A stretch of DNA of 26,275 bases from Thermincola sp. (GTDB taxonomy: Bacteria; Bacillota; Thermincolia; Thermincolales; UBA2595). Position 1 is the stretch's first letter, and the number at the start of each line of letters is the position of its first letter. Shown here one piece after another: positions 1 to 18,469 of this stretch. The stretch covers positions 111,268 through 137,542 of the forward strand of contig JAVSMW010000006.1 of the NCBI GenBank assembly GCA_032027005.1. Reading direction: 5' to 3'. Position numbers and translations under genes: made by a program. The notes beneath the pieces were generated by a model that worked only from the letters and a program-made list of their open reading frames with translations, did not search any database and was not told the DNA's origin.

Positions 1-1
1 A

Positions 2-937
2 GACCTCGATAGCGGGCGGCAGACAATGGGCATCCACCGCATCCAGGTACGCGGTCCAAAACGTCTTGGAGTATACCTGGCCAGCCGGACGTCGACAGAA
101 TTTTACCGTCGGGCAGAAAAAAAGAATATGCCACTGCCCGTAGCCATTGTAGTCGGTGTCCACCCGGCGATTTTAATGGCATCAGTGGCATGGTATCCTT
201 TTGGGGACAAATTGTCCCTGGCCGGGAGCTACCTGGGGGAACCGGTCCGGCTGGTAAAAAGTTTCAGTAGTAGCCTGGAAGTTCCGTCTGAAGCAATGTT
301 TGTCATTGAGGGTGAGATTTTGCCGGGAGTTATGGAAAAGGACGGGCCTTTTGGCGAAAGTTCCGGTGTTTATGTTCCGGACATAACTAATACCATTCAG
401 GTGACCGCAATCACCATGCGGCGTGAACCGATTTTTTCCGCCTTTGTGCCATGGTCAGGCGAAGATGGGCTGGTTTTTTCTCATGCTTACGGCTCTTTTG
501 TTGTGCAAGAATTAAAGCGTTCTTTTCCGGCGGTTATTGGTCAGTGTTTTGATTTTCGATGCGGAGGATTACTGGTGGTCCAGATTGAAAGCATGGCCAG
601 AACCGAAGTGCGGCGTCTCCTTTACCATGTATTGGTCAACAACCCTTATGTGAAACAGGTTGTTGTCGTCAATGGGGATGTCGACATCTTTGATCAACAG
701 GAAGTGAACTGGGCAATTCTGACCCGTAGTCAGCCGGATATTGACTGGCTGATTCTGCCGGATATCCCAGGTTCACCGATTGATCCTTCGACGAGGCAAG
801 GGACGGGGTCCAAAGTGGGAATCGATGCTACTTATCCACCGGAAAAAGAGGAGATCTTTGCCAAAGTTGCACCGCCTGAACAGGCCCGGGCCAGGGCGAA
901 GGAAATTTTGGGCAAGGCCGGTTTTAATGTGGGCTAA
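2..937 (+). CDS. UbiD-family (de)carboxylase, 5'-truncated by window edge
   Basis: Open frame from base 2; C-terminal UbiD features GIHRIQV, PLPVAIVVGVHPA, GEPVRLVK, FVIEGE, DGPFGESSG. Confidence 0.88.
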   Translation, partial: DLDSGRQTMGIHRIQVRGPKRLGVYLASRTSTEFYRRAEKKNMPLPVAIVVGVHPAILMASVAWYPFGDKLSLAGSYLGEPVRLVKSFSSSLEVPSEAMFVIEGEILPGVMEKDGPFGESSGVYVPDITNTIQVTAITMRREPIFSAFVPWSGEDGLVFSHAYGSFVVQELKRSFPAVIGQCFDFRCGGLLVVQIESMARTEVRRLLYHVLVNNPYVKQVVVVNGDVDIFDQQEVNWAILTRSQPDIDWLILPDIPGSPIDPSTRQGTGSKVGIDATYPPEKEEIFAKVAPPEQARARAKEILGKAGFNVG

Positions 938-1115
938 AAAGCTTAGCCTGCTCCAGTTTTGATGTAATGAGTTATTGATGTTATGCTTGTACAAATTTTT
1001 TATCAGGATATTTCGTATGCAAAATAATTCTCTGAAGAAAATCTTTTCGGCGTAAATACCATTGGAAACAGGCGATAATCGCGTTTAAGTGATGAAATGG
1101 AGGAGGGCGCTAAGT

Positions 1116-2540
1116 ATGAATTATAGGCAATTCCTGGATTGTTTAGAACGGCAGGGGGAGTTAAAACAGGTAGACCGGGAAGTGGATTGGAACCTGGAGG
1201 CGGCGGCGGTTTTGGCCATGGTTTACCGGATGGAAGGACCGGCAGTACTGTTCAATAAGATCAAGGGTTATCCGCCGGGATACCGGATGGCCGGAGCTCT
1301 ATACTCGGGACCGCGCCGCCAGCCGTGGCGGAAATTGGCCATGGCGCTGGACATCGACCCCGACGGCGGTTACCGGAAATGGCTGGAGGAGTTTAATCGC
1401 CGCCTGGATCATCCGATCAAACCGGTAGTTGTTCCGGATGGACTCTGCAAGGAAGTAATTCTTACCGGCGAGGAGGCGGATATCTTTAAACTGCCTATTC
1501 CGTACCTGCATTTAGGCGACGGGGGCCGTTACGGCGGCACGCTGCCGGTAACCGTCACGCGTCACCCGGTCCGGGACTGGGTCAACGCCGGCAACTACCG
1601 CTGGATGGCCCATGACAAACACAGGCTGGGTGGAGACTTTCAGCCAGGACAGCATATGGCGGATATGTATTTTGTTTACGAAAAAAAGGGTGAAGCTATG
1701 CCGTTCTGTATGGCCATGGGTGTCAACCCGGCCCTGGATATTGCCGCAGGGGTTTCTTTACCGGTAGGAGCTAATGAATATGACGTGGCGGGGGGACTGC
1801 AGGAAGAGCCTCTCCAACTGGTGAAAGCCGAAACCAACGATCTGCTGGTCCCGGCGGATGCCGAGATCATCATCGAAGGTGAAGTGCGACCGCATGAAAG
1901 GCTCGAAGAAGGTCCCTTCGGCGAGTATGACGGCTTTATGACTACGCGGCTTCCCCAACCGGTCTACCACATTAAAGCTATAACCCACCGCCGGAATCCG
2001 ATCTTGCCGGTAGCTCCGGAAGGGTATCGCTTCAATGATACCGGTGCCATGTCGTGCGCCATCCTCTCGCCGGTCCTGCAGTGGCGGCTGGAAAAAGATG
2101 GCTTTAATGATGTATTGTTTTACAATATCCCGGAGGCTTCCTGGGCGTGGCCGGTGGTGGCCACCAAGCCTATTTCCGATACCGACCTGGGGAAATTAGT
2201 TTCTGCCGTCTGGTCGGTACCGACCATGGGGTGGCTGGATAAACTGTTGCTGGTTGATGAGGATGTGGATATTACCAGTACCGAGGAACTTCTAGAGATT
2301 TTGGGTACCCGCCTGCAAGCGGATCGGGTATATCAGAGCAAACCCAATAAACCCATCTCCTTTATTGCCGCTTGGGCTACAGAAGAAGAGCTGCGGCGGG
2401 GTCTGGCCAACGCTTTGACGTATGATTGTGTTACGCGGCCGGAGGAGGACAAACCGGAGAAAATAACCATTGAAACCCTGTTGACGCCGGCAACGCGGGA
2501 ATGGCTGGACAATTTTTGGCTCCGGGCAGTTTCCCAGTAA
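1116..2540 (+). CDS. UbiD-family (de)carboxylase, canonical residue set (A-type)
   Basis: ATG at 1116 behind GGAGGAGGG; motifs VNAGNYRW, GQH, ANEYDVAGG, AEIIIEGE, EGPFGEYDG. The listed ORF start at 1089 lacks as good an RBS. Confidence 0.93.
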   Translation: MNYRQFLDCLERQGELKQVDREVDWNLEAAAVLAMVYRMEGPAVLFNKIKGYPPGYRMAGALYSGPRRQPWRKLAMALDIDPDGGYRKWLEEFNRRLDHPIKPVVVPDGLCKEVILTGEEADIFKLPIPYLHLGDGGRYGGTLPVTVTRHPVRDWVNAGNYRWMAHDKHRLGGDFQPGQHMADMYFVYEKKGEAMPFCMAMGVNPALDIAAGVSLPVGANEYDVAGGLQEEPLQLVKAETNDLLVPADAEIIIEGEVRPHERLEEGPFGEYDGFMTTRLPQPVYHIKAITHRRNPILPVAPEGYRFNDTGAMSCAILSPVLQWRLEKDGFNDVLFYNIPEASWAWPVVATKPISDTDLGKLVSAVWSVPTMGWLDKLLLVDEDVDITSTEELLEILGTRLQADRVYQSKPNKPISFIAAWATEEELRRGLANALTYDCVTRPEEDKPEKITIETLLTPATREWLDNFWLRAVSQ

Positions 2541-2597
2541 ACGGCGGGAAAGGCCGCAAGATTTACAAGTAAATAAATGAGGTAAAGGAGGATAATT

Positions 2598-4145
2598 ATG
2601 CTTTTCCGGGATTTTCTCGACGAACTTAAGCGCTGCGGTGAATTAACCGAAATAGCGGAAAAGATACATTGGGACCAGGAAGTGGCTGCGGTTACTGCCA
2701 TGTCCCAGCAGAAGGGTGGGGCGGCCCTCCATTTTACTCAAGTGCAGGACGGAAACGGTTCGTCGCTGGTTGGAGCTCTGTTTTCCGGACCGGGTACTTT
2801 ATACGGCAATCCTGGCGGTAGGACCCCTTGGACGAAGATGGCCATCGCGCTCGGTTTTAATCGCGATATTTCCTACGAGGAATTATGCGAGGAGTTACTC
2901 AAACGCCGGGAGCGACCGATGCGCCCTACTGTGGTCTCTTCGGGACCGTGCAAAGAGGTGGTAAAAGTTGACGATGAGGCGAGTCTTGCCGATTTTCCCT
3001 TTCCCAGGCACTACGCCAAGGACGGAGGCCGTTACCTGACGGCGGGCGTACTGGCAGTGAAAGATTATTACGGTCGCTGGGCTAACTGGGGAGTGTATCG
3101 CGCCATGGTGCTTTCGCCACGCGAACTGGTAGTCAACATCAGCCCTGAATCCCAGGCCGGTCGGCTGCTCGCGGAATACGAACAGCACGGCAAGCCGATG
3201 CCCTGCTGCTTCTTTTTAGGAGGTAATCCCGCGGCTTTTGTCGCCGCGGCGGCACCGGTGCCTGAAGGCATCTGGGAGGCGGAAATGGCGGGTGCGTACA
3301 TCCAAAATCCGCTGGAACTGACCAGCGCGGTAACCAACGACCTGCTGATCCCGGCAGATGCCGAAATGGTAATCGAAGGAATGATTATGCCGGGCGAGCG
3401 CCATGCCGAGGGCCCGTTCCCGGAATACGTCAGGTATGCTCCACCCCGGCCCCGGCCAGTGATGCGGATAACTGCAATTACCCACCGCAAAAGTCCGGTG
3501 CTTCCATTCGTAGCCGAAGGTTGCAAGGTGAGTGATTCCATGGCGCTGCGCTCAGTGCTGGCTTCCGTTGAACTGCTGTACAAAGTGCGCACTCAGACCC
3601 AGCTTCGGGTCAGGTGGATCTACCTGCCGGTAGAGAGTCGGCTTTCAATTTGCGTGGTCGGGTGTGATCCTTTCTATCGGGGGCACAACTTCTGGGTAGC
3701 CAATGTACTTAGCCGGTACAAGGAGATGGCCTGGTTTGACAAAATCCTGATGGTGGACAGCGACATTAATCCGTCGGACATGACGGAAGTAGTAAACGAT
3801 TGGGCTCAGAAAACCAGGCCCGAAAAAGGTTATGGCTTCTGGGCGGAAGAATATTCCCACGCTGCTGGGCGCACCGCCGCTTATGCCGGGGAAGGGGAAC
3901 CGACGCGAACGGTTGTCTGGGACTGTTGCTGGGACGATAGCTGGAAAAAAGAACAGATCAGGGCCAGGGTCAGTTTTGAAAGCTCCTTCCCGACGGAACT
4001 CCAGGAGAAGGTGGTCAGTTTCTGGCCCGAGTACGGGCTGCCCGGCAAACCGTTTAAAAAACTTGTAGAGCCTTCCTGGACCCGCGGGCCGCTGCACCCG
4101 CCTGAATTCACAAAAATACCGGGAATAGGAGGTGAAGACCAGTGA
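2598..4145 (+). CDS. UbiD-family (de)carboxylase paralog, B-type
   Basis: AAAGGAGGATAATTATG start; RWANWGVYRAM, AEMVIEG, EGPFPEYVR; C-terminus RARVSFESSFPTELQEK shared with ORF 8211-9707. Confidence 0.9.
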   Translation: MLFRDFLDELKRCGELTEIAEKIHWDQEVAAVTAMSQQKGGAALHFTQVQDGNGSSLVGALFSGPGTLYGNPGGRTPWTKMAIALGFNRDISYEELCEELLKRRERPMRPTVVSSGPCKEVVKVDDEASLADFPFPRHYAKDGGRYLTAGVLAVKDYYGRWANWGVYRAMVLSPRELVVNISPESQAGRLLAEYEQHGKPMPCCFFLGGNPAAFVAAAAPVPEGIWEAEMAGAYIQNPLELTSAVTNDLLIPADAEMVIEGMIMPGERHAEGPFPEYVRYAPPRPRPVMRITAITHRKSPVLPFVAEGCKVSDSMALRSVLASVELLYKVRTQTQLRVRWIYLPVESRLSICVVGCDPFYRGHNFWVANVLSRYKEMAWFDKILMVDSDINPSDMTEVVNDWAQKTRPEKGYGFWAEEYSHAAGRTAAYAGEGEPTRTVVWDCCWDDSWKKEQIRARVSFESSFPTELQEKVVSFWPEYGLPGKPFKKLVEPSWTRGPLHPPEFTKIPGIGGEDQ

Positions 4146-5074
4146 GCGAAAAACATGCTGCCGGATTACGGGAGTTGCAGGCGGTAAATATCAGCATGAG
4201 CTGCGATCTTGCTTGCGAGCGCTGCGAACGGTTTTTTGACTGCGAGGCTCCCCAGAAGCACGATATCTACAAGCGGGGGCGGATGGAAAAAGCCCGCCGG
4301 AATATGGAAAGAGTGCGCTATAAAATAGCTATTGTTGGGGGAAAGGGCGGGGTTGGCAAATCGACCCTGACGGCTAACCTGGCCTGTGCTCTGGCTAACG
4401 ACGGTAACCGGACCAGCGTTCTGGACCAGGATTTCGACGGGCCGACCATTCCGCGCATGCTGGGGGTAACTGATAAAAAAATGATGTTTTCCGAAAAGGG
4501 CATCCAGCCCGTGGAGGGGATATTGGGGATCCAGGTGGTTTCGACAGGCTGTGTTGTCGGCACCGATGAGGTGCTGACCTGGTTTCATGACATGCGGCGG
4601 GGCGCCACTGAGGAATTCCTGGCTCACGTGGATTACGGGGAACGGGATTACCTGCTGATCGACCTGCCGCCAGGGACCAGCTCGGATTCGGTAAACCTTA
4701 TGCAGTATATTCCCGACCTGGCCGGGGCAATTATTATTACCGTTCCCTCTGATGTATCCCAGGTAGTGGCCCGCAAGGCCGCACTGCTCTGCGGGAAAGC
4801 GGGAGTACCGATTCTGGGTGTGGTTGAAAACATGAGCGGGTTTGTTTGTCCTGACTGCGGGCGAGTAGTCAATATTTTCCGTAGCGGAGGAGGAGAAAAA
4901 CTCGCCGAATCTCTGGGTGTTCCTTTCATGGGGAATATTCCCCTTGATGCCAAGCTCAGTGATGCGGCGGACAGTGGCCGACCTTATGTCTTAGATTACC
5001 CGGATAGCCCTGCGTCCAAAGCTTTGCAAGGGATAGCTGCTTACTTGAGGGAGATACTGGAAAAGAAGAATTAA
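4142..5074 (+). CDS. Mrp/NBP35-like P-loop ATPase with N-terminal CX3CX2CX5C motif
   Basis: GGKGGVGKST deviant Walker A, DYLLIDLPPGTSS, CPDC; N-terminus CDLACERCERFFDC; GTG start overlaps the upstream TGA by 4 nt. Confidence 0.92.
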   Translation: MSEKHAAGLRELQAVNISMSCDLACERCERFFDCEAPQKHDIYKRGRMEKARRNMERVRYKIAIVGGKGGVGKSTLTANLACALANDGNRTSVLDQDFDGPTIPRMLGVTDKKMMFSEKGIQPVEGILGIQVVSTGCVVGTDEVLTWFHDMRRGATEEFLAHVDYGERDYLLIDLPPGTSSDSVNLMQYIPDLAGAIIITVPSDVSQVVARKAALLCGKAGVPILGVVENMSGFVCPDCGRVVNIFRSGGGEKLAESLGVPFMGNIPLDAKLSDAADSGRPYVLDYPDSPASKALQGIAAYLREILEKKN

Positions 5075-5082
5075 TTTTTTAT

Positions 5083-5106
5083 GGCCGGTTGAGGTATCGA
5101 CCGGCC
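5083..5106 (+). terminator. Hairpin after the first UbiD/Mrp operon, possible terminator
   Basis: GGCCGGT-(10 nt)-ACCGGCC stem followed by TGCTATTTTG; T tract is short. Confidence 0.5.
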
Positions 5107-5176
5107 TGCTATTTTGTGCGCTCGTTATGGTTGTTAAAAGTTAAAAAAAGAAAATAATCTTGTCTTAAGAGGTTAG

Positions 5177-5397
5177 AACCGTTAAAGCTTAATTTTGTCC
5201 AATTTAACCTATGATTTGTGCAGTTGCCAACTTAATAATTGTCTAAATGCAAAGATGTTATATAATTAAAACACACTTAATCTGGAAATTAACAAAATAA
5301 TAATAGCATTAAATTAGCGTGCGAACTGGGACCTGTTGTGGCGGGGGAGTGAATGGATTCGGCGGTTTGATTGCAAAACAAGTTCGTATACGAACAA
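5177..5397 (+). repeat. Direct repeat copy 1: promoter-bearing region fused to the 3' part of a small-ORF relative
   Basis: 5177-5326 matches 5671-5819 (AACCGTTAAA...TTTGTGCAGTTGCCAAC...GATGTTATATAATTAA...TAGCGTGCGAAC), then TGGGACCTGTTGTGGCGGGGG...GTTCGTATACGAAC matches the region after 5988. Confidence 0.85.
5239..5266 (+). promoter_or_regulatory. Sigma-A-like promoter, copy 1
   Basis: TTGTCT, 16 nt spacer, TATAAT. Confidence 0.5.
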
Positions 5398-5424
5398 AAC
5401 TGGTGAATATTTAATACATATAAA

Positions 5425-5646
5425 GTGATTTCCGGCTATAAAATAAATGAACTCCAGATATGGTCTAATATCAGGGAACGGCAAAAAATGCTCGAAATAT
5501 TACAGGAATGGGAATGCGTAGATAACTTTGAACACTGTATTCGTAGAAAATCCGGAGAAACAATTTGTGAGATACTTGCGGTGTGGCTTATGACAATGAC
5601 AAGTATCACAGTTTCAGAGTGTTTTAGGAAGAAAAAAAGGGGGTAG
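5425..5646 (+). pseudogene. Remnant of a PAS domain protein
   Basis: NELQIWSNIRERQKMLEILQEWECVDNFEHCIRRKSGETICEILA resembles the C-terminal half of PAS domains (..LW.NPEDRQ..LE.L...G.V.NFE...RRKDG....); no full domain or obvious RBS. Confidence 0.45.
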
Positions 5647-5670
5647 ATGAAAATGAAAATAAATACTATT

Positions 5671-6064
5671 AACCGTTAAATCTCAATTTTGTTCAATTTA
5701 ACCTAAGATTTGTGCAGTTGCCAACAAAATAATTGCCTAGAAATAACGATGTTATATAATTAAACCATACATAAATCTGGAAACTGAAAAAAATAATAGT
5801 ATTTAACTAGCGTGCGAACAATTTGTGAACAGGAGGTGAAATTGATGTTTAAAAAACAAAATACTACAATACCTAAAATGGGAGAAAAACTAGCAAAAAT
5901 TACCGAAGCAATTGCCGAAAAGGAAAACTCAAGAATCGAAGAAAAAACTTACCGTAGAAATTGTTATGAGGTTTTTCCATTTCTGACTGGAACCTGTTGT
6001 GGCGGGGGAGGGGATGGATTCGGCGGTTTGTTTGATTACAAAACTAGTTCGTATACAAACAAAA
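5671..6064 (+). repeat. Direct repeat copy 2: promoter region plus intact small ORF
   Basis: Contains the same promoter-like block as 5177-5326 plus 168 bp (5820-5987) absent from copy 1. Confidence 0.82.
5733..5760 (+). promoter_or_regulatory. Sigma-A-like promoter, copy 2
   Basis: TTGCCT, 16 nt spacer, TATAAT; both boxes present in both repeat copies. Confidence 0.55.
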
Positions 6065-6069
6065 ACTAG
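5845..6069 (+). CDS. Small Cys/Gly-rich peptide (74 aa)
   Basis: AGGAGGTGAAATTG-ATG start; MFKKQNTTIPKMGEK...RRNCYEVFPFLTGTCCGGGGDGFGGLFDYKTSSYTNKN. Confidence 0.6.
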   Translation: MFKKQNTTIPKMGEKLAKITEAIAEKENSRIEEKTYRRNCYEVFPFLTGTCCGGGGDGFGGLFDYKTSSYTNKN

Positions 6070-6082
6070 TTCGTATACAAAC
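6040..6082 (+). repeat. Tandem repeat, two 21-nt units AAAACTAGTTCGTATACAAAC at 22 bp period
   Basis: Identical units at 6040-6060 and 6062-6082; each holds the near-palindrome GTTCGTATACAAAC. Confidence 0.85.
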
Positions 6083-6277
6083 AAAAAAAGTTCTCGCACA
6101 ATCAAAAATTATTCGCATCCGAAGCTAGGATAAGTTTTCGGGACCAGGGTGGCGAAAATGTGTGGGAAATTTAAATAAAAATAATATTTGCCAATTTAAG
6201 AAGGGGGTGAAGCTTATGTTGTGAAGAACTTCAGTGGAGCCCGAATAAAACACATTAATAGGAGGTGCACAACTTTA

Positions 6278-7822
6278 ATGGCAGTAAAAAGAATTGATGA
6301 TCTGAGAGATTACCTTGATGTTCTGGATCAAATGGGTGAAATATGTCATGTTAAGGATGAAGTTGACTGGAAACTGGAAATGACGGGAATTGGAGCTATG
6401 TCCAACCGTATCGACGACAAAATCCCACTCTTTGAAAACATTAAAGGCTACCCCAAAGGTACCAGGGCGTCAACTGACCTCTACCGTGGCAGCCACGGAG
6501 CTTTGTGGCGGCGGATGGCCTTGTCCATCGGCTTATCCCCGGAAATTTCCTATTCAGATTACATGGATGAATACATTAACCGTTTCAATCACCCGATCCG
6601 CCCCATTGCCGTGGATAAGGGTTCATGCCAGGACGTTGTACTGATCGGGAAAGATGTCGATGTTTTAAAAACACTTCCGGTTCCGTATATCCACGACGGT
6701 GACGGCGGTCGTTACCTGACCATGCACGCGATGATTGTCAAGGATCCTGATTCGGAATGGGTCAACTGGGCCAATTACCGTGCACTAGTTAATACCAAGA
6801 ATAAGATCAGCTTTCTCTTCTGCCCTGGCCAGCAAAACCCCAACCTTTACTATTATAAGTATGAAGCTAGGAACCAGCCCATGCCGGTTGCCATAGCCAT
6901 TGGCGGGCACCCTGCGGTTTGGTATATGGCCACAACTCCATTGCCAGCAGGGGTCAGTGAGGTCGATTATATCGGCGGCATGATCCAAAAACCGGTTGAG
7001 TTGGTCAAGTGCGTGACGAATGATCTTTATGTGCCAGCAAATGCGGAGTATGTGATTGAGGGCGTTATGATGCCCCACGAACGCATTGATGAAGGTCCGT
7101 TCGGTGAGTATCTTGGTTACATGCACGGCCCGCGCCGTCCGATGCCTTTTGTTCGGGCTACGGCCATTACCCACCGGAAAAACCCGATCCTGCCGATCTG
7201 CGTTGAGGGAACCGGGGTAGGGGAGTCGAATAACGTCTGCAATACCAGTTTCAACGCTCTGTTAACCCCAGCGCTAATGGTTTTCCTGCGGCAGCTAGGT
7301 TATCCGGTCAAGTTTGTAACTGGTCCCGAACTTAACGCGTGGTCATCCCTGATTGCGGCTACCAAAATTCCTTATCCCGGGTATGCCAAAGAATTAGGCG
7401 AACTGCTACTGACCTGTCCCGGACCTTCCATGTACTATGACCTTACTTTCCTAGTGGATGAAGATATTGACATTACCGATATGGAAAAAGTTTGGGAAGA
7501 AATTGTTTTAAAAGCCCATCCAACAAAGGATTGGAATAACTTCGGCGACGCTGAAGCGCCAAGGTCGTCGCTGAATATCTACCAGACAGCCGAAGAAAAA
7601 GGAGCCCTAGCTAAGGCGTCCTCCAAGGGAAAAACGTCAAAATGCTGGATTGACGCCACAACCAAGGAATGGAACGAAACTACGGACGGACCGAAACGCA
7701 TGGAGTTCGATCTTTTATATCCGACCACTAAGGATTGGGTGACCAGCAACAAAGAAAAATACGACCTGCCAAAATATAAGGATTTCCGTGAGGAAGGTTT
7801 ACGCTGGATTGAACAAAAATAA
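6278..7822 (+). CDS. UbiD-family (de)carboxylase, A-type
   Basis: AGGAGGTG RBS before ATG 6278 (57 nt inside the listed ORF); EWVNWANYRAL, GVSEVDYIGG, AEYVIEG, EGPFGEYLG. Confidence 0.92.
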   Translation: MAVKRIDDLRDYLDVLDQMGEICHVKDEVDWKLEMTGIGAMSNRIDDKIPLFENIKGYPKGTRASTDLYRGSHGALWRRMALSIGLSPEISYSDYMDEYINRFNHPIRPIAVDKGSCQDVVLIGKDVDVLKTLPVPYIHDGDGGRYLTMHAMIVKDPDSEWVNWANYRALVNTKNKISFLFCPGQQNPNLYYYKYEARNQPMPVAIAIGGHPAVWYMATTPLPAGVSEVDYIGGMIQKPVELVKCVTNDLYVPANAEYVIEGVMMPHERIDEGPFGEYLGYMHGPRRPMPFVRATAITHRKNPILPICVEGTGVGESNNVCNTSFNALLTPALMVFLRQLGYPVKFVTGPELNAWSSLIAATKIPYPGYAKELGELLLTCPGPSMYYDLTFLVDEDIDITDMEKVWEEIVLKAHPTKDWNNFGDAEAPRSSLNIYQTAEEKGALAKASSKGKTSKCWIDATTKEWNETTDGPKRMEFDLLYPTTKDWVTSNKEKYDLPKYKDFREEGLRWIEQK

Positions 7823-7888
7823 GGTCGGGTTATAATATCCAGACCTTAAAAACCAAAACATCAAAATATAGGAGGTGCATAGTTAGAT

Positions 7889-8185
7889 ATGGCCAAGTAT
7901 GAGATGTGGGTTAAAGAGCTAAAAAGATTCAGGAATGAAATTCAGGATGGGACACCGGTAAAAGTGGATGTTCGAGACGAGAGCCTGAACTGGCATGCAG
8001 TGATAGCCATTATTTCGGAAACCCCGATCAAGGATGGAGTAGAAACAGTGATAGTTGGGGAAGGTGGACCGGTTTCCTATGTCAACAAGCCGGTATACCT
8101 TAAAATTGTCGAAGAACTGGACGAAGACGACCAATATGTTATCAAAGATATGGACAGATACAACAAAAGACTGGGTGATGTCTAA
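7889..8185 (+). CDS. Small protein (98 aa) between two UbiD genes, candidate carboxylase accessory subunit
   Basis: AGGAGGTG RBS, position between the A and B UbiD paralogs; function inferred from context only. Confidence 0.7.
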   Translation: MAKYEMWVKELKRFRNEIQDGTPVKVDVRDESLNWHAVIAIISETPIKDGVETVIVGEGGPVSYVNKPVYLKIVEELDEDDQYVIKDMDRYNKRLGDV

Positions 8186-8210
8186 TAATAAGCAGGAGGT
8201 GTAGTCATAA

Positions 8211-9707
8211 ATGAAGTTCAGAAACTTCCTTGAAGTCTTAACTGAGGAAAATGAGGTAAATGAGGTCAGTGAAAAAGTCAGCCCTGTCTTACAGGCGGGG
8301 GCGTTGGGGGCAAAAAATGTGGAACTGGATGGTCCGGCGATGCATTTTAAGAACTTAGAAGGTTATCCCAACGCGTCACTGGTCACTGGGCTTTACGCTT
8401 CGCCCAGCGATTTGTATCCCAAGCGACGTAAGGCGTGGATCAGAACGAATGTTGCTCTGGAGCGTGAGTTGGAGGGGACGTATGAAGAGCTCCAGGAACA
8501 TATTTATGACGGTCTGGAGCAGGGCGGACTCAAACCCCTTGAAGTAAGCTCCGGACCATGTAAGGAAAATGTCAAACTGGACGATCAGGTGGATCTGAAT
8601 GAGTTTCCATTTCCGTTAATCCATGAACAGGACGGAGGTAAGTATAGCACCCAGCATGTGATTATCGTAGAGGATCCAGAAAACGGGGTAATTTCTTGGA
8701 GCGACGAAAGGTTTATGATCAAGGATCGCAACCTACTCGTCGTTAACCTCGATCCGGAAGGAAGACTTTATGAAATTTATCAAAAGTACGTTAAACTCAA
8801 CAAGCCGATGCCCTTTGCCGTGGCCATCGGTGTAGACTCCAGCATCCCTTTAGCGACAGCCGTGTTCATGGAAAGAGTGGGGCTGGGCGGACTGAAACGT
8901 GAAGTTCCTGCCGCGGACCTTGCCGGATATTTGGGTGGCGAACCGATTGAACTGGTAAAAACCCAAACCAATGGTCTGCTTGTTCCGGCCAGCAGCGAAA
9001 TAATCCTAGAGGGTGTTGCTATACCGGGGGAAACTGCCTTAGAAGGGCCATATCCGAATTTCTACCGCATCGAGAAAGCAACATGGCAACCAATATTCAC
9101 CGTCAAGGCAATTTCCCACCGCACAAATCCTATTATACCATTTGACGTTACCGGTATCAAGGGTAGTGATTCTATGAGTCTCCGCTCTTGGGCCCACTCG
9201 TTTAAAATCTATCGGATTTTGAACAGCTGGTGGTGGGGGACCAAAATTGCCCGTTGGGTCTATTGCCCTGTTTCTATGCGTATGGGGATGGGTATAGTCG
9301 CCGTGAACGCCCTCTACCCAGGGTTTGAGTTCCACTTCTCCCGTATTGTTTTCGCTTACAGCCACTGGTTTGACAAACTAATGCTGGTTGATAACGCCCT
9401 CGGCGCCGAAGAGTTGGCTAGGGTTATGCAGGACTTTATCCAAAAGGCTTCGCCGGTGCATGCCTTCCATTTCTCTAAGGACGATGTGGCGGCAATTACG
9501 CGTTCTGCCAAATATCCGAACGACGGTGAGCGCACAGGGCGCTTGTATATCAATGCTTGTCTTGATCCCACTTGGCCCAAGGAGATGATCCCAACACGGG
9601 TCAGCTTTGAGACGACATGGCCTGTGGCGTTGCAAGAAAAAATAATAACCAATTGGAGCAAGATGGGGTTTGTTAATAAACCGCAAAAACGATTAATTAA
9701 CGCATAA
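8211..9707 (+). CDS. UbiD-family paralog, B-type with diverged active site
   Basis: FRNFLEVL, SSGPCKENVKLDDQVDLNEFPFP, GGEPIELVK, SEIILEG; motif reads EGPYPN rather than EGPFGE. Confidence 0.88.
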   Translation: MKFRNFLEVLTEENEVNEVSEKVSPVLQAGALGAKNVELDGPAMHFKNLEGYPNASLVTGLYASPSDLYPKRRKAWIRTNVALERELEGTYEELQEHIYDGLEQGGLKPLEVSSGPCKENVKLDDQVDLNEFPFPLIHEQDGGKYSTQHVIIVEDPENGVISWSDERFMIKDRNLLVVNLDPEGRLYEIYQKYVKLNKPMPFAVAIGVDSSIPLATAVFMERVGLGGLKREVPAADLAGYLGGEPIELVKTQTNGLLVPASSEIILEGVAIPGETALEGPYPNFYRIEKATWQPIFTVKAISHRTNPIIPFDVTGIKGSDSMSLRSWAHSFKIYRILNSWWWGTKIARWVYCPVSMRMGMGIVAVNALYPGFEFHFSRIVFAYSHWFDKLMLVDNALGAEELARVMQDFIQKASPVHAFHFSKDDVAAITRSAKYPNDGERTGRLYINACLDPTWPKEMIPTRVSFETTWPVALQEKIITNWSKMGFVNKPQKRLINA

Positions 9708-9726
9708 GTTGCTTATTCAGGAATTT

Positions 9727-9759
9727 GGCGGGGAGAGGGACTTTCCTCCCCCCCCCGCC
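9727..9759 (+). terminator. GC-rich intercistronic hairpin (attenuator or terminator-like)
   Basis: GGCGGGGAGAGG ... CCTCCCCCCCCCGCC; no clear T tract. Confidence 0.35.
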
Positions 9760-9800
9760 CCCATCAAATTAAATTATTTGGTAATGGAAGGAGCCGGAAT

Positions 9801-10730
9801 ATGAGCGAGGAGAGAAACGAGGAGAGAACTGTCCTCAAGATCAATGTGGATTTAAACTGCGATCACAAGTGTGAACGGTGCGAAAAGTTTTTTGAATGTG
9901 ATGACGATATTAAATGGAAGATTTATGGTCGACGCAGAATGGCTCGCGCAGCCCGAACCATGAAGAAAATCAAGTATAAGATCGCCATCGGGGGCGGGAA
10001 AGGCGGAGTCGGCAAATCAACCACAACGGCTAACTTGGCTGTGGCTCTGGCGCAAATGGGTTACAAAGTCAGCGTATTGGATCAGGATTTTGACGGTTCA
10101 ACGATTCCCAAGTTATTTGGGGTGATGGATAAAAGGATGAAACTGGGAGAAAAAGGCTTGAAACCAGTGGAGGGGTTACTGGGTATTCAGATGGTTTCTT
10201 TGGGCTTAATCCAAAAAGAATCCGAAGTGGTAACGATGTTTCATGATATGCGGAGGGGAACTACCGAAGAGTTTTTAGCCCATGTGGATTATGGCGAAAT
10301 TGATTTTTTACTGGTTGACCTGCCCCCGGGTACCAGCTCTGACGCGGTAAACCTAATGCAGTATATACCTGATTTAAACGGTCTGATTGTCATTACTATT
10401 CCGCCTTATGTGTCCCAACTGGCGGCGAGAAAAGCGGCGCAGATTGCCATGAAGGCGGAAACTCCTGTTCTTGGAATAATTGAAAATATGAGCGGGTATA
10501 TCTGCCATAAATGCGGGAAGGAATTTGACGTGTTACAGCGCGGCGGTGGTGAAAGGCTGGCGGAGGAGCTTGGGGTGAATTTCCTTGGAAGAGTACCTCT
10601 GAATAAGGAGTTAAGCGAGGCATCCGACGCTGGGGAACCGTTTGTTTACAAATATCCGGAAAACCCTGGCACAAAGGGAATGCAAGATATAGCTAAGCGC
10701 TTAGTTAAATTGCTTGAAGAAGGTGTCTAA
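9801..10730 (+). CDS. Mrp/NBP35-like P-loop ATPase with N-terminal CX3CX2CX5C motif
   Basis: CDHKCERCEKFFEC, GGKGGVGKST, DFLLVDLPPGTSS, CHKC. Confidence 0.92.
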   Translation: MSEERNEERTVLKINVDLNCDHKCERCEKFFECDDDIKWKIYGRRRMARAARTMKKIKYKIAIGGGKGGVGKSTTTANLAVALAQMGYKVSVLDQDFDGSTIPKLFGVMDKRMKLGEKGLKPVEGLLGIQMVSLGLIQKESEVVTMFHDMRRGTTEEFLAHVDYGEIDFLLVDLPPGTSSDAVNLMQYIPDLNGLIVITIPPYVSQLAARKAAQIAMKAETPVLGIIENMSGYICHKCGKEFDVLQRGGGERLAEELGVNFLGRVPLNKELSEASDAGEPFVYKYPENPGTKGMQDIAKRLVKLLEEGV

Positions 10731-10773
10731 AATAAAACAGGTGGGTGAAATTTAATCTGAAAGGGGAACCGTT

Positions 10774-11697
10774 ATGAGCGATTCAAGCATTAAAGAAGAA
10801 ATTGATCTGATTGGGATTAATGTGGATACCTCATGTTCTTACGACTGCGCCAACTGTGAGAGGTATTTTGAATGCAAGTGGCCGCAGAAGGAAGATTTTT
10901 TGAAACATGGTTTCTATCCCTTGGCCAAGGAAAACCTGAAAAATGTTAAAAGGAAAATTTTGGTTTTGGGTGGCAAAGGGGGCGTCGGCAAGTCCATGCT
11001 GGCAACCAACTTGGCGGCTGCTCTGGCTAAACTCGGCAAAAAAGTGTGTGTTCTGGACCAAAATTACGACTGTCCCGCTGTACCGATTATGCTTGGAGTT
11101 GAGGGCAAAAAGCTGAAGACTGGGGAAAACGGTTTTATCCCGGTTGTAGGAGCAGGCGGGGTCAAAGTGGTTTCGATGGGCCTGATTTTGTCTCAGGATG
11201 AAATAATTATCTGGTTCCATGATTCGAAAAGGGCAGCAACTGAGGAGTTCCTTACCAATGTGGACTTTGGAGAGTTGGATTATCTTATTTTTGATATTCC
11301 AGCGGGTACCAGCAGCGAAACTGTCAATGTCATGAAGTTAATACCGGACATGGACGGCAGTATTGTAATCACGGTTCCCAGTGAGGTATCTCAAAACGTG
11401 GCGAAAAGAGCCATATTAGTCAGCCAGCAGGCTGGTGTACCTGTCTTGGGGGTCATTGAAAATATGGGTTCGTTTACCTGTCCGGACTGCGGAGAGGTCG
11501 TAGGGATTCTGCAAAGCGGCGGTGGGCAAAAGCTGGCGAGCGATATGGGCATGGAGTATTGGGGCTCAATTCCGATGGACTTGGAAGTAAGCAGTTCTCT
11601 AGATCATGGCAACCCCTTCGTCTTGAACGATGAAAATTTTGTGGGTTCGCAAGTGGTTATGACCGCGGCGCAAAAGTTGATTAAAAAATATGATTAA
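10774..11697 (+). CDS. Mrp/NBP35-like P-loop ATPase, variant
   Basis: CSYDCANCERYFEC, GGKGGVGKSM, DYLIFDIPAGTSS, CPDC; VLDQNYDCPAVP replaces VLDQDFDGPTIP. Confidence 0.9.
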   Translation: MSDSSIKEEIDLIGINVDTSCSYDCANCERYFECKWPQKEDFLKHGFYPLAKENLKNVKRKILVLGGKGGVGKSMLATNLAAALAKLGKKVCVLDQNYDCPAVPIMLGVEGKKLKTGENGFIPVVGAGGVKVVSMGLILSQDEIIIWFHDSKRAATEEFLTNVDFGELDYLIFDIPAGTSSETVNVMKLIPDMDGSIVITVPSEVSQNVAKRAILVSQQAGVPVLGVIENMGSFTCPDCGEVVGILQSGGGQKLASDMGMEYWGSIPMDLEVSSSLDHGNPFVLNDENFVGSQVVMTAAQKLIKKYD

Positions 11698-11772
11698 TAA
11701 TGATGCCCAAATGATTGACATGCGAATCTAATCCATACTATGCGTAATGTTTGCAGAGGAGGTGAAACATGC

Positions 11773-12141
11773 ATGGCTAAGGTTTATCAAACAATAATAT
11801 CATTAGCAGAAAAGGAACTCAAGCCGTGGTGGAAAAAAGATTCCGGCTTAGTAGGGCTGAGCGAAGGGGACCTCGCTGAACCGAAACAGCTAAATCTGCA
11901 GCTAACTGATGAAGAAACAATGGAAAATTTCGATGCTGTAGCGTTAGTATGTAATAATCGGGAGAAACTCTCTGATAGCGATACATTGCAGGTTGTTGAT
12001 TTTGAAACATCAACATGTATAAAAGAACTGTTTATCAAAATCATTGAAAAAATAGAGGAGCCCGAAGTACAATTAAATTTTAATACTAAAAAACAGCGTC
12101 TCAGCCAAAAAGGAGATATTCTTAAGTCTCTTCTCAAATGA
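11773..12141 (+). CDS. Hypothetical protein (122 aa)
   Basis: GAGGAGGTGAAAC RBS upstream of ATG 11773; no recognised family. Confidence 0.6.
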   Translation: MAKVYQTIISLAEKELKPWWKKDSGLVGLSEGDLAEPKQLNLQLTDEETMENFDAVALVCNNREKLSDSDTLQVVDFETSTCIKELFIKIIEKIEEPEVQLNFNTKKQRLSQKGDILKSLLK

Positions 12142-12185: not shown

Positions 12186-12389
12186 ATGCCAATTTACGAA
12201 TATAAATGCGCCAATGGTCATGTTTTTGAAGAATGGCAAAATATCAACGACAAACCGTTGGAAAAATGCCGGATTTGCGACGCTGATGTGAAAAAATTGA
12301 TTTCCCGGTTCAAGACTCAGCGTTTATGGAACGGTTCAGGTATTTATGTTTTTGACCGGGCCGGCAAAAGTCCTGATTGGAACCGGTAA
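12186..12389 (+). CDS. FmdB-type putative zinc ribbon protein
   Basis: MPIYEYKCANGHVFEEW...EKCRICDA start typical of the FmdB/CxxC regulatory family; GAGGAGG RBS. Confidence 0.8.
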   Translation: MPIYEYKCANGHVFEEWQNINDKPLEKCRICDADVKKLISRFKTQRLWNGSGIYVFDRAGKSPDWNR

Positions 12390-12420: not shown

Positions 12421-12858
12421 ATGGAAATTGAGAGTTTAGTCGTAGAGGGACACTTAGTTTCCGGATTGGGAGAGGGGACTTACATGACCAAACTGGAGTG
12501 GGTAGAGTTGCAGTGCCAGAAAAAATTCGGTTTTCATCCTCAACCGGGAACATTTAATATCCAGCTCGATAAGAAAGAGAGCGAGCGCTACTCAATAGTA
12601 AAAAAATATCGGGGGATAAAAATCCTTCCGCCTTCCGATATCTTTGCTGCGGCAAAATGTTTTCCGGTTCAAGTAGGAAAAGTTAAAGGTATCGTAGCGA
12701 TTCCCCTGCTGGATGATTACCCCCCAAACATTCTGGAAATCATTGCGCCCATACGGATGAGGGATGCGCTGGGTGTCCGGGAAGGCGACCTGATCCAGGT
12801 AAAGATTGAATTGGGATCTTTTGTTAAACGAGGTGATGACCAATCGGAGTTGAAGTAA
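12421..12858 (+). CDS. CTP-dependent riboflavin kinase-like protein (DUF120/archaeal RibK family)
   Basis: GHLVSGLGEGTYMTKL, FGFHPQPGTFNIQL, YRGIKILP, PNILEIIAPIRMRDALGVREGDLIQVKI match the RibK family pattern as I know it. Confidence 0.75.
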   Translation: MEIESLVVEGHLVSGLGEGTYMTKLEWVELQCQKKFGFHPQPGTFNIQLDKKESERYSIVKKYRGIKILPPSDIFAAAKCFPVQVGKVKGIVAIPLLDDYPPNILEIIAPIRMRDALGVREGDLIQVKIELGSFVKRGDDQSELK

Positions 12859-13607
12859 TAAGCTTTGATGTTCACGGTACCCTTGTCGAAAAAGGTGGCG
12901 TAAAGGCTTTCAGGGCGGCAGTCAAATCGGTGGTATCTTTTTTGAATTCCCGGGATGTTCATTTGACTGAAGAAGATTATTTTTCGATCTGGAAAAACAA
13001 TTTGAAATGCTGGTCAAGCTATTTGCATGAAAACAAAGAAGTTGACTTTTACCGGTGGTATGAGGGCATATTGTACCGGGTCGGAATAGCTTACGACAAA
13101 AGTTTGATTGATTTATTCAATAATTATTGGATGGAGGGTTTCAAAAACTTTACTAAGCCGATTCAAGGTGCGGGAAAACTTCTTTCGGAACTCAAACGGC
13201 AGGGGTACAAATTAGGGGTTGTTTCCAACGGTTTAGCCCGAAATAATGTTTTGGATCTACAGCGGACCGGGCTGGAAAGTTATTTCAGTTCTATCGTCAT
13301 CTCCTCAGACGTGGGTTACAGAAAACCTGAGTCGGCACCTTTTTTAAAAGCACTGGCTGAATTGGAAACAAACCCTCAGAATGCGGTTATGGTCGGCGAC
13401 AGTATGAAAGAAGATATTTGTGGCGCTAAAAAAGTTGGCATGAGAACAGTCTGGGTAAGAGGATGCGATGGGTTGAGAACCGTTACCGATAAGGTATTGG
13501 ATTCGGATGCAGCCGTGCAGCCCGACGAGACTGATGTGGCTGATGTGGTCGTAGATCAGCTAGAGGAATTGTATTTGCTTCTTTCAGCAGGGCGCTGGCC
13601 AAGCTAA
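12855..13607 (+). CDS. HAD-superfamily hydrolase, start codon unresolved
   Basis: Reading upstream of the listed start (12930) gives VISFDVHGTLVEKGG (motif I). Later: VVSNG (II), GYRKPESAPF (III), VMVGDSMKEDICGAKKVGM (IV). No ATG/GTG/TTG in frame before motif I. Confidence 0.7.
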   Translation, partial: VISFDVHGTLVEKGGVKAFRAAVKSVVSFLNSRDVHLTEEDYFSIWKNNLKCWSSYLHENKEVDFYRWYEGILYRVGIAYDKSLIDLFNNYWMEGFKNFTKPIQGAGKLLSELKRQGYKLGVVSNGLARNNVLDLQRTGLESYFSSIVISSDVGYRKPESAPFLKALAELETNPQNAVMVGDSMKEDICGAKKVGMRTVWVRGCDGLRTVTDKVLDSDAAVQPDETDVADVVVDQLEELYLLLSAGRWPS

Positions 13608-13669: not shown

Positions 13670-14065
13670 ATGGAAAATTTTGTTGCTGATAAGTTAAGGG
13701 AAGGGTTAGAAATATTTCACAGCTTTCTTGATGCCAACCAGGATAAGATTAAAAATGGAGAGCCTTTTATGATGCTTGTCCTAGATCTGGACAACATTTG
13801 TGACAAAGTAGTGAAAGGAATTGTGGCCCAGAATAGCGAGGAAGAGGGCTGGATTGACCTATGGATTAAGGATCAAAATGATAAAATCAGGCATGATGTC
13901 TGGAAAATCAAGGTTCTTGAAGAATTTGACGAGGATGAGGTTGATGTTAGGAGACCTGAAGCGGATGCAACAATCGTGGCCGGGATGTTCGGGAGCACTA
14001 TGACCACGGAGCACATGGAGCAAGATGCGGTGAAATATAAAAAAGAGTTCGGGCGCAAGAAATAA
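13670..14065 (+). CDS. Hypothetical protein (131 aa)
   Basis: GGAGG RBS, in the operon run; no recognised family. Confidence 0.6.
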   Translation: MENFVADKLREGLEIFHSFLDANQDKIKNGEPFMMLVLDLDNICDKVVKGIVAQNSEEEGWIDLWIKDQNDKIRHDVWKIKVLEEFDEDEVDVRRPEADATIVAGMFGSTMTTEHMEQDAVKYKKEFGRKK

Positions 14066-16158: not shown

Positions 16159-16173
16159 AAAAATGCGTAGAAA

Positions 16174-16187
16174 GTTCGTATAAGAAC
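16174..16187. promoter_or_regulatory. Candidate operator GTTCGTATAAGAAC
   Basis: Near-perfect palindrome upstream of the 16407-20681 gene run; matches the 5382 and 6048 motifs. Confidence 0.45.
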
Positions 16188-16406
16188 AATAAAGTACTCT
16201 GGGAGAGTTCTGATTAAGGGGAGGTGATAAAAACGTTTTTTGTATATGAACACAAAAGTAAACCGGGGGAATCGGAGGGGAGGTGAAAATAAAGAAAAAT
16301 TTTAAGACGATTGACAGGAAGAGGATAAGTTATCTAGGGTTTTGCTTCACACGTTGCGGGAATAATTTGTTTATTTAATTTAAAAAGCAAAGGAGGAGAG
16401 GTTTTA

Positions 16407-16787: not shown

Positions 16788-16809
16788 ATATTGATAGAAA
16801 GGAAAGGTG

Positions 16810-18345: not shown

Positions 18346-18469
18346 AATGAAGGGTTAAAAAAAGTATTCATGGTTTCTGGTTGTTAAACATGAGCAGGTA
18401 CAGAAGATGATTTTTAAAATGGAAAACGTAACTTTTGTGCCTGCTCAGACTAATTTTAAAGGTGGTGGA

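Follow-up and report, generated by a model that had tools for sequence, protein, structure and literature searches.

Gene content of the locus

We analyzed a stretch of 26,275 nucleotides from a Thermincola sp. metagenome-assembled genome (MAG; GCA_032027005.1, contig JAVSMW010000006.1, positions 111,268 to 137,542), hereafter the window, in which genes for UbiD-family proteins are repeatedly grouped with genes for Mrp-type ATPases. Assigning genes by Pfam and NCBIfam profile matches, we found six UbiD paralogues and five Mrp/NBP35-like P-loop ATPases, which, like all sizeable open reading frames (ORFs) of the window, lie on the + strand (Table 1). The region forms the first two-thirds, on the upstream side, of a locus already published as the putative anaerobic benzene carboxylase locus of a Thermincolales bacterium (NRBC/BF type) that reduces nitrate and degrades benzene, and we think it probable that the locus encodes a multi-subunit, ATP-assisted arene carboxylase.

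The locus consists of three co-oriented units. Unit I reads U-A1-B1-M1; unit II reads A2-gamma-B2-M2-M3-gamma-zinc ribbon-riboflavin kinase-HAD-gamma; and unit III reads M4-M5-AbcD-AbcA-BzlA-UbiX (14102-20681). An earlier reading made from the letters and ORFs alone (the sequence-only reading) had counted six UbiDs and five ATPases and described a module present twice, as UbiD-A, UbiD-B and Mrp at 1116-5074 and as UbiD-A, a 98-aa protein, UbiD-B and two Mrps at 6278-11697. The ORFs and Pfam matches bear out these counts, the gene order and the coordinates; the listed genes do belong to the system, but its limits were drawn too narrowly, as the sixth UbiD (26-937) and the third unit belong to it as well. 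For UbiD-A1 the longest ORF begins at 1089, and GGAGG precedes the ATG at 1116. AbcD carries the NCBI name phenylphosphate carboxylase gamma subunit, Thermincola sp.

Table 1. Features of the window, with positions counted from its first nucleotide
Feature	Position	Strand	Evidence and remarks
UbiD, fourth type (U)	26-937	+	PF01977 + PF20696; 5'-truncated at window edge, C-terminal 303 aa left
UbiD-A1, 474 aa	1116-2540	+	Pfam UbiD_N, UbiD, UbiD_C
UbiD-B1, 515 aa	2598-4145	+	PF20695, PF01977, PF20696
Mrp M1	4142-5074	+	PF10609, 260 bits; 4-nt overlap with B1 stop
Non-coding gap	5075-6220		34% GC
Terminator-like hairpin, end of unit I	5083-5106	+	10-pair stem, 7 G-C, then T-rich tail
Duplicated promoter-like region, low GC	5177-6107	+	direct repeats D1-D6
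Palindrome GTTCGTATACGAAC	5382-5395, 6047-6060, 6069-6082; 16174-16187		perfect or one mismatch; first three 5' of A2, last 5' of abcD
UbiD-A2, 514 aa	6278-7822	+	PF20695, PF01977, PF20696
98-aa gamma-like small protein, between A2 and B2	7889-8185	+	profile comparison
UbiD-B2, 498 aa	8211-9707	+	PF20695, PF01977, PF20696
Mrp M2 (m2 type)	9801-10730	+	PF10609, 245 bits
Mrp M3 (m3 type)	10774-11697	+	PF10609, 230 bits
133-aa gamma-like small protein (h133)	11740-12141	+	hhalign
67-aa FmdB-family zinc-ribbon protein (CxxC...CxxC)	12186-12389	+	PF09723 51 bits, TIGR02605
CTP-dependent riboflavin kinase, archaeal-type	12421-12858	+	PF01982, 101 bits
HAD-family hydrolase	12930-13607	+	PF13419
131-aa gamma-like small protein (h131)	13670-14065	+	hhalign
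Mrp M4	14102-15151	+	PF10609
Mrp M5	15151-16158	+	PF10609
AbcD, phenylphosphate-carboxylase-gamma-like small subunit	16407-16787	+	PF09662, 30.8 bits
AbcA, PpcA-like UbiD, putative benzene carboxylase alpha	16810-18345	+	TIGR02723 431 bits, cutoff 564.6
BzlA, benzoate-CoA ligase family	18407-20032	+	TIGR02262 671 bits, cutoff 375
UbiX flavin prenyltransferase (makes prFMN)	20088-20681	+	NF004685 265 bits, cutoff 188
HAD-MarR fusion	20785-21816	+	
DDE (IS4-like) transposase	22172-23626	+	
MarR, second	24047-24643	+	
PAS-SpoIIE phosphatase	24994-26196	+	

Identity with the published putative benzene carboxylase locus

In an exact look-up, nine of ten tested window proteins were identical to Thermincola sp. 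MAG proteins (MDT36997xx), and several, B2 among them, were identical to 2010 UniParc entries (UPI0001DC12xx) that we take to be those of the enrichment clone BF. A highly transcribed Peptococcaceae contig carrying abcA, abcD, bzlA and ubiX was reported to share >96% identity with the BF cluster described in Abu Laban 2010, with contig-100_0 mapping to BF AbcA, AbcD, BzlA and UbiX at 96-98% (Atashgahi et al. 2018; here and below, statements on this study and on the other benzene culture papers concern the excerpts of them used here). Every comparable protein fragment of contig-100_0 in the Table S3 of that study matches the window. Because the proteins are identical or near-identical and the gene order abcD-abcA-bzlA-ubiX is the same, we identify the locus with the published cluster; gene order, transposase, MarR and MRP genes all agree with the accounts of the BF/Thermincolales benzene cluster (Abu Laban 2010; Luo 2014; Atashgahi 2018; Xiao 2024). 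The excerpted accounts center on AbcA, AbcD, BzlA and UbiX, and the upstream A/B pairs are not discussed there as such. A further BF-type ubiD, D8WWN4, is listed merely as a transcribed gene accounting for 21% of ubiD transcripts (Atashgahi 2018); from the order of accessions we would guess that it is A2.

The Mrps were labeled "multidrug resistance protein MRP homologue" in the same study, and M2 was binned under nifH, where it made up 78% of that function (Atashgahi 2018). By their sequences, both labels are misleading and the genes are better described as Mrp/ApbC/NBP35-type P-loop NTPases. An error that recurs in annotations, the reading of "MRP" as multidrug resistance protein or the binning of the genes as nifH, is thereby corrected.

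Comparison with other carboxylases

The clusters N47_K27540-K27460, NaphS2 NPH_5855-5865 and those of TRIP_1 contain a PpcA-like alpha and a gamma subunit, proteins annotated "MRP, Fer4_NifH superfamily" and "ParA/MinD ATPase like, MRP," three UbiDs interleaved with hypotheticals, and HAD hydrolases; Desulfatiglans TRIP_1 has two complete phenanthrene carboxylase clusters. The association of UbiD with MRP/ParA-MinD ATPases has already been described for N47, NaphS2, TRIP_1 and Guaymas MAGs, and a complex of ~750 kDa has been proposed for the N47 naphthalene carboxylase (2025 review, PMC12016498). Since the locus is published and the UbiD-Mrp association is described in these cases, both the locus and the coupling are already known and form no newly recognized class. 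Of the distinct energized or redox-activated carboxylase class that the sequence-only reading had suggested, the link to ATP is the part that stays plausible, given the N47 extract data below (PMC12016498); novelty does not hold, and nothing found here shows redox activation.

The gene content of the N47-type cluster (PpcA-like UbiD plus gamma, two MRPs, at least three further UbiDs split by small proteins, HAD) is matched by the window. Among the metagenomic or genomic stretches that carry homologues of window genes (given L-numbers below), L036, which has an N47-like order as we read it, and L098, with a related order, have A, B, m2 and m3 genes that fall into the clades of their counterparts in the window, and the orthology to N47 is inferred from such look-alike loci. 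Compared with the N47 type, the gene order of the window is rearranged. The N47 type has two Mrps and the window five, among them an m4/m5 pair that is tied to AbcA; the window also has two A/B pairs, and its locus includes the genes for riboflavin kinase, UbiX and the CoA ligase. Its host belongs to the Firmicutes, and benzene is presumed to be the substrate.

Phenylphosphate carboxylase (PpcABCD of Thauera/Aromatoleum) likewise has two UbiD-like subunits (alpha and beta) and a small gamma subunit, and AbcA is nearest to PpcA. None of the Ppc equivalog cutoffs (TIGR02723/TIGR02724/TIGR02725) is reached in the window: AbcA scores 431 against 564.6, the A and B proteins 159-220 against 564.6, and AbcD 32.5 against 135.55. 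The Ppc substrate is already phosphorylated. The window has no phenylphosphate synthase. Unlike in the window, Mrp was absent beside the one PpcA-like plus gamma locus examined, L009, whose PpcA-like gene is 31% identical.

UbiD proteins

The UbiD copies are strongly diverged. Pairwise identity is 40% between A1 and A2, 36% between B1 and B2, and 32-34% between A and B proteins. All five complete paralogues have the three-domain architecture PF20695/PF01977/PF20696, with the UbiD_C match of B2 under the gathering threshold (19.9 bits), and the truncated paralogue matches the last two domains. The truncated protein, of U type, clusters with L001_1542, L007_8271 and similar proteins at 100% bootstrap.

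Two motifs had been put forward in the sequence-only reading as features of the B proteins that the A proteins lack. Among window UbiDs, the full strings SSGPCKE (residue 114 in B1) and RVSFE..LQEK (residue 457 in B1) are indeed confined to B1 and B2, but their cores are not peculiar to B: GPCKE with its Cys is a general UbiD motif found in 85 of 94 distant UbiDs, the same column reads GLCKE in A1 and GSCQD in A2 and holds a Cys in AbcA too, and the C-terminal motif aligns to the C-terminal helix of AbcA and Fdc1.

To compare active sites, we used the columns of AnFdc1 N168, R173, H191, E233, E277 and E282, of which R173, E277 and E282 form the catalytic E(D)-R-E and N168, H191 and E233 are the Mn2+ ligands; the numbering was checked against the residues in the 7ney alignment. 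In this order of columns, A1 reads N R H E E E and is intact, A2 and B1 each read N R Q E E E, and AbcA reads N R D E E E; B1 is thus intact, in contrast to B2. B2 reads S R R A E N, losing the equivalents of N168, E233 and E282, and is predicted to be catalytically degenerate. The U-type protein at 26-937 reads T R - K D E, with T/-/K in the metal ligand columns. Across the homologues, all 31 A-type UbiDs retain N, E, E and E, as AbcA-type proteins nearly always do, whereas of 30 B-type proteins 12 retain the E282 equivalent and 20 retain N168 and E233; in the U-type, Lys replaces E233 in 14 of 14. Because its active-site columns are degenerate, the B-type looks like a frequently non-catalytic partner of A.

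We also looked for a possible Fe-S client. No conserved multi-Cys site was found in the A, B, AbcA, X or U UbiDs or in the small proteins; the A, B, AbcA and X UbiDs have essentially one Cys each, that of the family-wide GPCKE motif.

Mrp ATPases

M1 and M2 are 59% identical, and the remaining Mrp pairs 42-52%. The Cys-rich N-terminus noticed in the sequence-only reading is present in all five as a four-Cys motif, spaced C-x3-C-x2-C-x5-C in M1-M4 and C-x10-C-x2-C-x5-C in M5; in M1 these residues are 21, 25, 28 and 34. All five also have a Walker A KGGVGK[ST], switch II and a C-terminal CxxC, which in M1 is CPDC at 236 and aligns with CPNC of 2ph1. More than 118 M1 homologues at 55-64% identity were found, and CExCE[KR]F[FY][DE]C is kept in 117 of 118.

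PF10609 matches are 230-260 bits. The best family matches are to the Fe-S carrier proteins MrpORP (225-252, cutoff 450) and ApbC (160-193, cutoff 348), both below cutoff. By sequence, the nearest solved structures to M1 are the A. fulgidus Mrp-like 2ph1 and 3kb1 and Cfd1 6g2g. An AlphaFold model of M1 (pLDDT 84.7) had ApbC 8zkc, 2ph1 (AF2382) and Cfd1 as top Foldseek matches at TM 0.65-0.85, and after ApbC, Cfd1 and archaeal Mrp-like proteins the next neighbors were ATPase-type HypB metallochaperones; the N-terminal 35 residues were modeled at pLDDT 51-77, so the Cys motif is not confidently resolved. An assignment to NifH/BchL-type reductases was rejected: the NifH, BchL, BchX and CfbC models scored 20-34 bits, far below cutoff and on the P-loop only, and NifH structures ranked below ApbC, HypB and MinD in the Foldseek search.

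In fold, in a deviant Walker A that bears the signature Lys and in a C-terminal CxxC, the window Mrps agree with the Mrp/ApbC/NBP35-Cfd1 Fe-S scaffold ATPases, and their heterotypic pairs recall Nbp35-Cfd1. Their N-terminal CX2CX5C spacing presumably resembles the N-terminal cluster motif of eukaryotic Nbp35. They differ from ApbC, MrpORP and Nbp35 in forming a separate subfamily, marked by CExCE[KR]F[FY][DE]C and genomically tied to UbiD. Because none of the UbiDs or small proteins has a multi-Cys Fe-S site, the Mrps are probably themselves Fe-S components and not carriers for a client encoded in the locus.

Within the subfamily (lower-case m1 to m5 for the types), neighbor-joining bootstraps are 78% for m2 and 98% for m3. 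The m1 type occurs singly. An m2 gene usually adjoins an m3-type gene, and m2 plus m3 is the common core; m4 plus m5 accompany AbcA-type UbiDs, and m4 stands with an AbcA-type UbiD in L056, L083, L048 and L059. In the m3 type, switch I reads LDQ[V/N]YDC[PA] (LDQNYDC in M3) versus the canonical LDQDFDG, so that the second Asp is lost and a conserved Cys gained, while the m2 partners keep the canonical form. Because of this difference, m2/m3 may be an asymmetric heterodimer with one ATP site impaired. In L028 (2842-4791), an open segment of ~650 aa scores as m1-type Mrp and may be a domain fusion or an over-long ORF.

Conservation and shared history of the A, B and Mrp genes

B-type relatives are rare. 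B homologues at 85% to 38% identity occurred in seven contexts (L001, L003-L008), all seven with Mrp genes and at least two UbiD genes; an 8-sequence B-family profile search of genome contigs gave one unrelated 2.2-kb contig as its sole match. We then searched with a DNA pattern of the Mrp N-terminal motif alone, which returned 85 metagenomic stretches. Thirty-five of these are at least 5 kb long, 33 of them encode Mrp, and 32 of the 33 carry a UbiD gene (28 of 29 without four stretches, from two contigs, that are near-identical to the window). UbiD genes are estimated at few per genome, which would put chance adjacency at a few percent. ATPases never found near UbiD pairs would have spoken against the sequence-only reading, and the 32 of 33 stretches are the reverse of that. 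Because the A/B/Mrp grouping recurs in dozens of independent metagenomic loci, it is not due to chance.

Five clades recur among the neighboring UbiDs, namely A, B, AbcA/PpcA-like (C), X and U. Trees were built by neighbor joining on distances with bootstrapping, and their deep nodes are weak; monophyly of all A-type proteins, for example, has low support in the large tree. A1 belongs to a subclade with 100% bootstrap and orthologues in L001, L003, L006 and L027, A2 to another with 100% bootstrap (L001, L058, L045 and a Haladaptatus protein), B1 to one with 95-100%, B2 to a B2 subclade, and AbcA to the AbcA/PpcA clade. As the sequence-only reading had held, then, the copies are strongly diverged (A1-A2, B1-B2 and M1-M2 as given above) and A1, A2, B1 and B2 each have orthologues of their own, which is not the pattern of a recent duplication. 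That the repeat reflects such a duplication or an assembly artefact, for which the repeated gene order alone speaks, is ruled out for practical purposes by the UbiD (36-40%) and Mrp (59%) identities, by the separate orthologues of each copy in the trees, and by the same arrangement on the independent assemblies L001, L027 and L081.

Adjacent A-B units numbered 22, with an Mrp gene within 700 bp in 19; in most such pairs a small gamma-like protein is encoded between A and B. The phylogenetic comparison proposed in the sequence-only reading gave evidence of a shared history: Mantel correlations were r=0.94 for A versus B (p=1e-4, 18 units) and, versus the m3-type Mrp, r=0.98 for A and r=0.96 for B (8 units), values expected for any genes co-inherited in an operon and no proof of contact. 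The order that recurs is m2-m3-A-(small protein)-B, to which some loci add X, U or C plus gamma; C-gamma-m2-m3-A-B occurs in L036 and a related order in L098. Units I and II are linked in L001 (an 85%-identical relative), L027 and L081. The unit is not simply the one pair coupled to one Mrp-type ATPase of the sequence-only reading; its recurrent core joins A and B, with a gamma-like protein, to two Mrps of different types, and a PpcA-like UbiD and a gamma are often added. Its broader proposal, that the grouping is a functional, ancient and co-inherited set with plausible energy coupling, is partly supported.

Several loci show other arrangements. Minimal two-gene units, in which one UbiD directly follows one Cys-rich Mrp, occur in L092 (4353-6706), L077, L031 and L096 (8001-10445), the UbiD being U-type in L092, L077 and L031; the L092 pair has SurE, ArsA, SelB and MeaB as neighbors, unrelated to aromatic degradation, and the L096 pair lies beside HGD-D genes. 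In L097 (8001-9868, a Dehalococcoidia MAG), a Cys-rich Mrp is followed by a UbiE-like methyltransferase, with SurE and ArsA upstream as in L092, and the contig ends before any UbiD comes into view; this may hint at a role in quinone biosynthesis. In L003 and L004 (ERZ13693047, ERZ13692955), the UbiD/Mrp cluster lies directly upstream of genes for a molybdopterin oxidoreductase, an AMP ligase, a methyltransferase, radical SAM, CCG/Fer4 and B12-binding proteins and a RACo-like activase, an uncommon combination that may reflect a different activation chemistry. The cluster of L098 lies beside BcrAD/HGD-D genes. In L095 (10001-12885, Haladaptatus caseinilyticus), an A2-like UbiD (98% bootstrap with the A2 subclade) is directly followed by a UbiD-like protein without a match to the central domain.

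Gamma-like proteins and cofactor genes

The 98-aa protein has no Pfam or NCBIfam match. By profile comparison, it matched the AbcD/Phenyl_P_gamma family with 94.8% probability, h131 with 97.4% and h133 with 87%; in hhalign comparisons h133 matched the gamma family with 96.4% and h131 with 97.4%, and h131 matched the gamma family with 98.4%. The 98-, 133- and 131-aa proteins and AbcD are thus mutually homologous (87-98% probability), which makes four gamma-like proteins in the window. In L001, L027, L058 and further loci, homologues of the 98-aa protein likewise separate A from B. The gamma-like proteins of the window probably correspond to the "linker proteins" of N47.

Flavin-supply genes accompany the clusters (the window, L005, L007, L019 and L045): riboflavin kinase, HAD and UbiX, with RibBA in loci other than the window. 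Riboflavin kinase recurs in L001, L005, L007, L019 and L045. This suggests that flavin mononucleotide (FMN) and prenylated FMN (prFMN) are made locally, and the presence of UbiX and riboflavin kinase within the locus fits a local cofactor supply. BzlA, as a protein of the benzoate-CoA ligase family, fits a role in turning the product into benzoyl-CoA. The FmdB zinc-ribbon ORF, between the 133-aa protein and riboflavin kinase, is easily overlooked; it recurs in L001 and L007.

Expression and ATP

The read counts of Atashgahi 2018, as excerpted, place transcripts of M2-M5, the gamma-like proteins, riboflavin kinase and HAD on the same contig as abcA, its most transcribed gene, and at ~10-30% of the abcA level. 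In sample 2, AbcA had 37338 reads, M4 10145, M2 7456, M5 7210 and M3 3657. M2 (contig-100_0_18) and M3 (contig-100_0_17) are both transcribed, as are h133, h131 and the FmdB zinc-ribbon protein in this Dutch culture (Atashgahi 2018). The assembled transcript contig ends at M2.

Naphthalene carboxylation in N47 extracts was stimulated fivefold by ATP, and the review authors report strong ATP dependency in their recent work; carboxyl exchange was observed in assays without ATP (PMC12016498). ATP use by the Mrps would explain the stimulation in extracts, given that the CO2-exchange half-reaction is ATP-free. In a pull-down from N47, the Mrps are summarized as part of the complex in a citing paper, the pull-down being known here through that summary.

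Base composition and regulatory elements

The GC content is 53-58% in unit I (50-58% over positions 1-5106) and 42-52% in units II and III, against a MAG mean of 44.5%. The gap after unit I contains a duplicated unit of ~230 nt or more (5177-5400 versus 5671-6064) and two similar promoter-like sites (5239 and 5733). The palindrome GTTCGTATACGAAC has four matches in the window where 0.03 are expected, and the close relatives L027 and L081 have it too. It is probably an operator common to units II and III, for which the nearby MarR proteins are candidate binders. Because the palindrome lies upstream of both A2 and abcD, units II and III would share a regulator and unit I would perhaps be separate; unit I may differ in both origin and regulation. 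In L001, a MarR gene occupies the place of the 5075-6220 gap, where the window has none. No Rfam families were found in the window.

Proposed function and alternative explanations

The anaerobic activation of benzene and unsubstituted polycyclic aromatic hydrocarbons is a long-standing problem; no purification has so far yielded active enzyme, and its ATP requirement is disputed. The best explanation of the locus, which we hold to be probable, is that the three units encode a multi-subunit, prFMN-dependent arene carboxylase of the UbiD type, ATP-assisted and of the same kind as the N47 naphthalene carboxylase. The A-type UbiDs and AbcA, with E-R-E and metal ligands intact, would carry out the prFMN chemistry. 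The B-type UbiDs, often degenerate as in B2, would be structural or regulatory partners, the pseudo-enzyme half of a heterodimer. The Mrp dimers would bind Fe-S clusters and spend ATP to activate the enzyme or keep it active, either through a coupling of conformations or through control over the redox state of prFMN, in an early or activating step.

Several points weigh against this explanation. The conversion of benzene and CO2 to benzoate by the locus is still putative in the literature, and the Mrps are no more than presumed physical subunits here. The first N47 assays were ATP-independent, and the ATP effect could arise from coupling to a CoA ligase (PMC12016498). Expression of unit I (A1-B1-M1) is undocumented in the accounts used, and with its differing GC and its own terminator it may be a separate enzyme. 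The Mantel values allow the neutral reading given with them. The minimal Mrp-UbiD pairs in non-aromatic contexts suggest that the role of Mrp is generic to UbiD and not specific to A/B. Lastly, the Haladaptatus A/B-like pair (L095), in a presumably aerobic haloarchaeon, lies near paa genes with no Mrp within 10 kb.

A more general role of the Cys-rich Mrp subfamily is worth a tentative proposal: it may be an Fe-S partner, driven by ATP and dedicated to the UbiD/prFMN enzymes of anaerobes at large, and not just to arene carboxylases. We raise this because the subfamily accompanies every UbiD clade seen, because minimal pairs occur in housekeeping contexts, and because the frequent m2/m3 pairs look asymmetric, switch I being altered in one partner. 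Such a partner could serve the O2-independent redox maturation or re-activation of prFMN, or the ATP drive of an endergonic C-H activation. No description of a general Mrp-UbiD link was found in the searchable literature.

A serious alternative, though we hold it to be less likely than not, is that the Mrps are not stable subunits and instead act as transient ATP-driven maturases or activases of UbiD, either for O2-independent oxidative prFMN maturation or for loading of cofactor or metal, as HypB does with Ni. The company that the Cys-rich Mrps keep is in line with this, since they accompany every UbiD type (A, B, AbcA-like, X, U), also where a single Mrp and a single UbiD form a minimal pair in housekeeping-like surroundings (L092, L077, L031, L096), and prFMN supply genes (UbiX, riboflavin kinase, RibBA) accompany the loci; HypB metallochaperones are the next structural neighbors of the M1 model, and no UbiD or small protein offers a multi-Cys site as a conventional Fe-S client. 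Five Mrps in type-specific pairs, with a co-divergence of r up to 0.98, fit stoichiometric partners better than a chaperone, however, and the Mrps are summarized as part of the N47 complex in the account cited above; the ATP effect, moreover, stems from turnover assays in cell extracts.

A second view that we regard as unlikely, to about the same degree, is that each of the two A/B/Mrp groupings is an enzyme of its own with its own substrate, or that one is spare, rather than both being parts of one benzene carboxylase, unit I having been acquired independently. The GC of unit I stands out from that of units II and III and from the 44.5% of the genome, a strong terminator ends it, the palindrome of units II and III is not shared by it, and its orthologues form a lineage apart, in which one Mrp, of m1 type, occurs; TRIP_1 with its two complete carboxylase clusters would be a precedent, and the transcript contig, in the excerpted data, stops at M2. 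Linkage of units I and II in L001, L027 and L081 argues for one system, as does the absence from unit I of both a PpcA-like UbiD and, as far as ORFs were found, a gamma-like protein; the start of unit I lies outside the window, which limits what the sequence tells of its regulation.

That the Mrps are ordinary ApbC-type Fe-S carriers for Fe-S-rich downstream enzymes such as benzoyl-CoA reductases, present here by co-regulation, we consider improbable. Although MrpORP and ApbC are their best family matches, the CxxC bridging motif is conserved and the L098 cluster lies beside BcrAD/HGD-D, their scores fall under both equivalog cutoffs and the distinctive N-terminal motif is kept in 117 of 118 homologues. 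UbiD adjacency in 32 of 33 stretches is far above what loose co-regulation would give, two to five paralogues per locus would be excessive for carriers, and the window encodes no Fe-S client.

The comparative results name the sets to co-express: A, gamma, B and an m2/m3 pair; m4/m5 with AbcD and AbcA; and UbiX and riboflavin kinase. They narrow the likely catalytic subunits to the A-type UbiDs and AbcA, as against scaffolds such as B2. The Cys-rich Mrps, as a near-exclusive marker, could find such carboxylases in metagenomes more specifically than abcA alone. What remains of interest is the role of these Mrps, their link to UbiD enzymes, which is nearly exclusive and seems to be general, and the degeneracy of B subunits.

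Flanking genes

Downstream of UbiX lie genes for the HAD-MarR fusion, the transposase, the second MarR and the PAS-SpoIIE phosphatase. The N47 cluster likewise has an IS4 transposase, and in the Dutch culture two copies of a transposase gene are present on the transcript contig. The benzene locus looks mobile.

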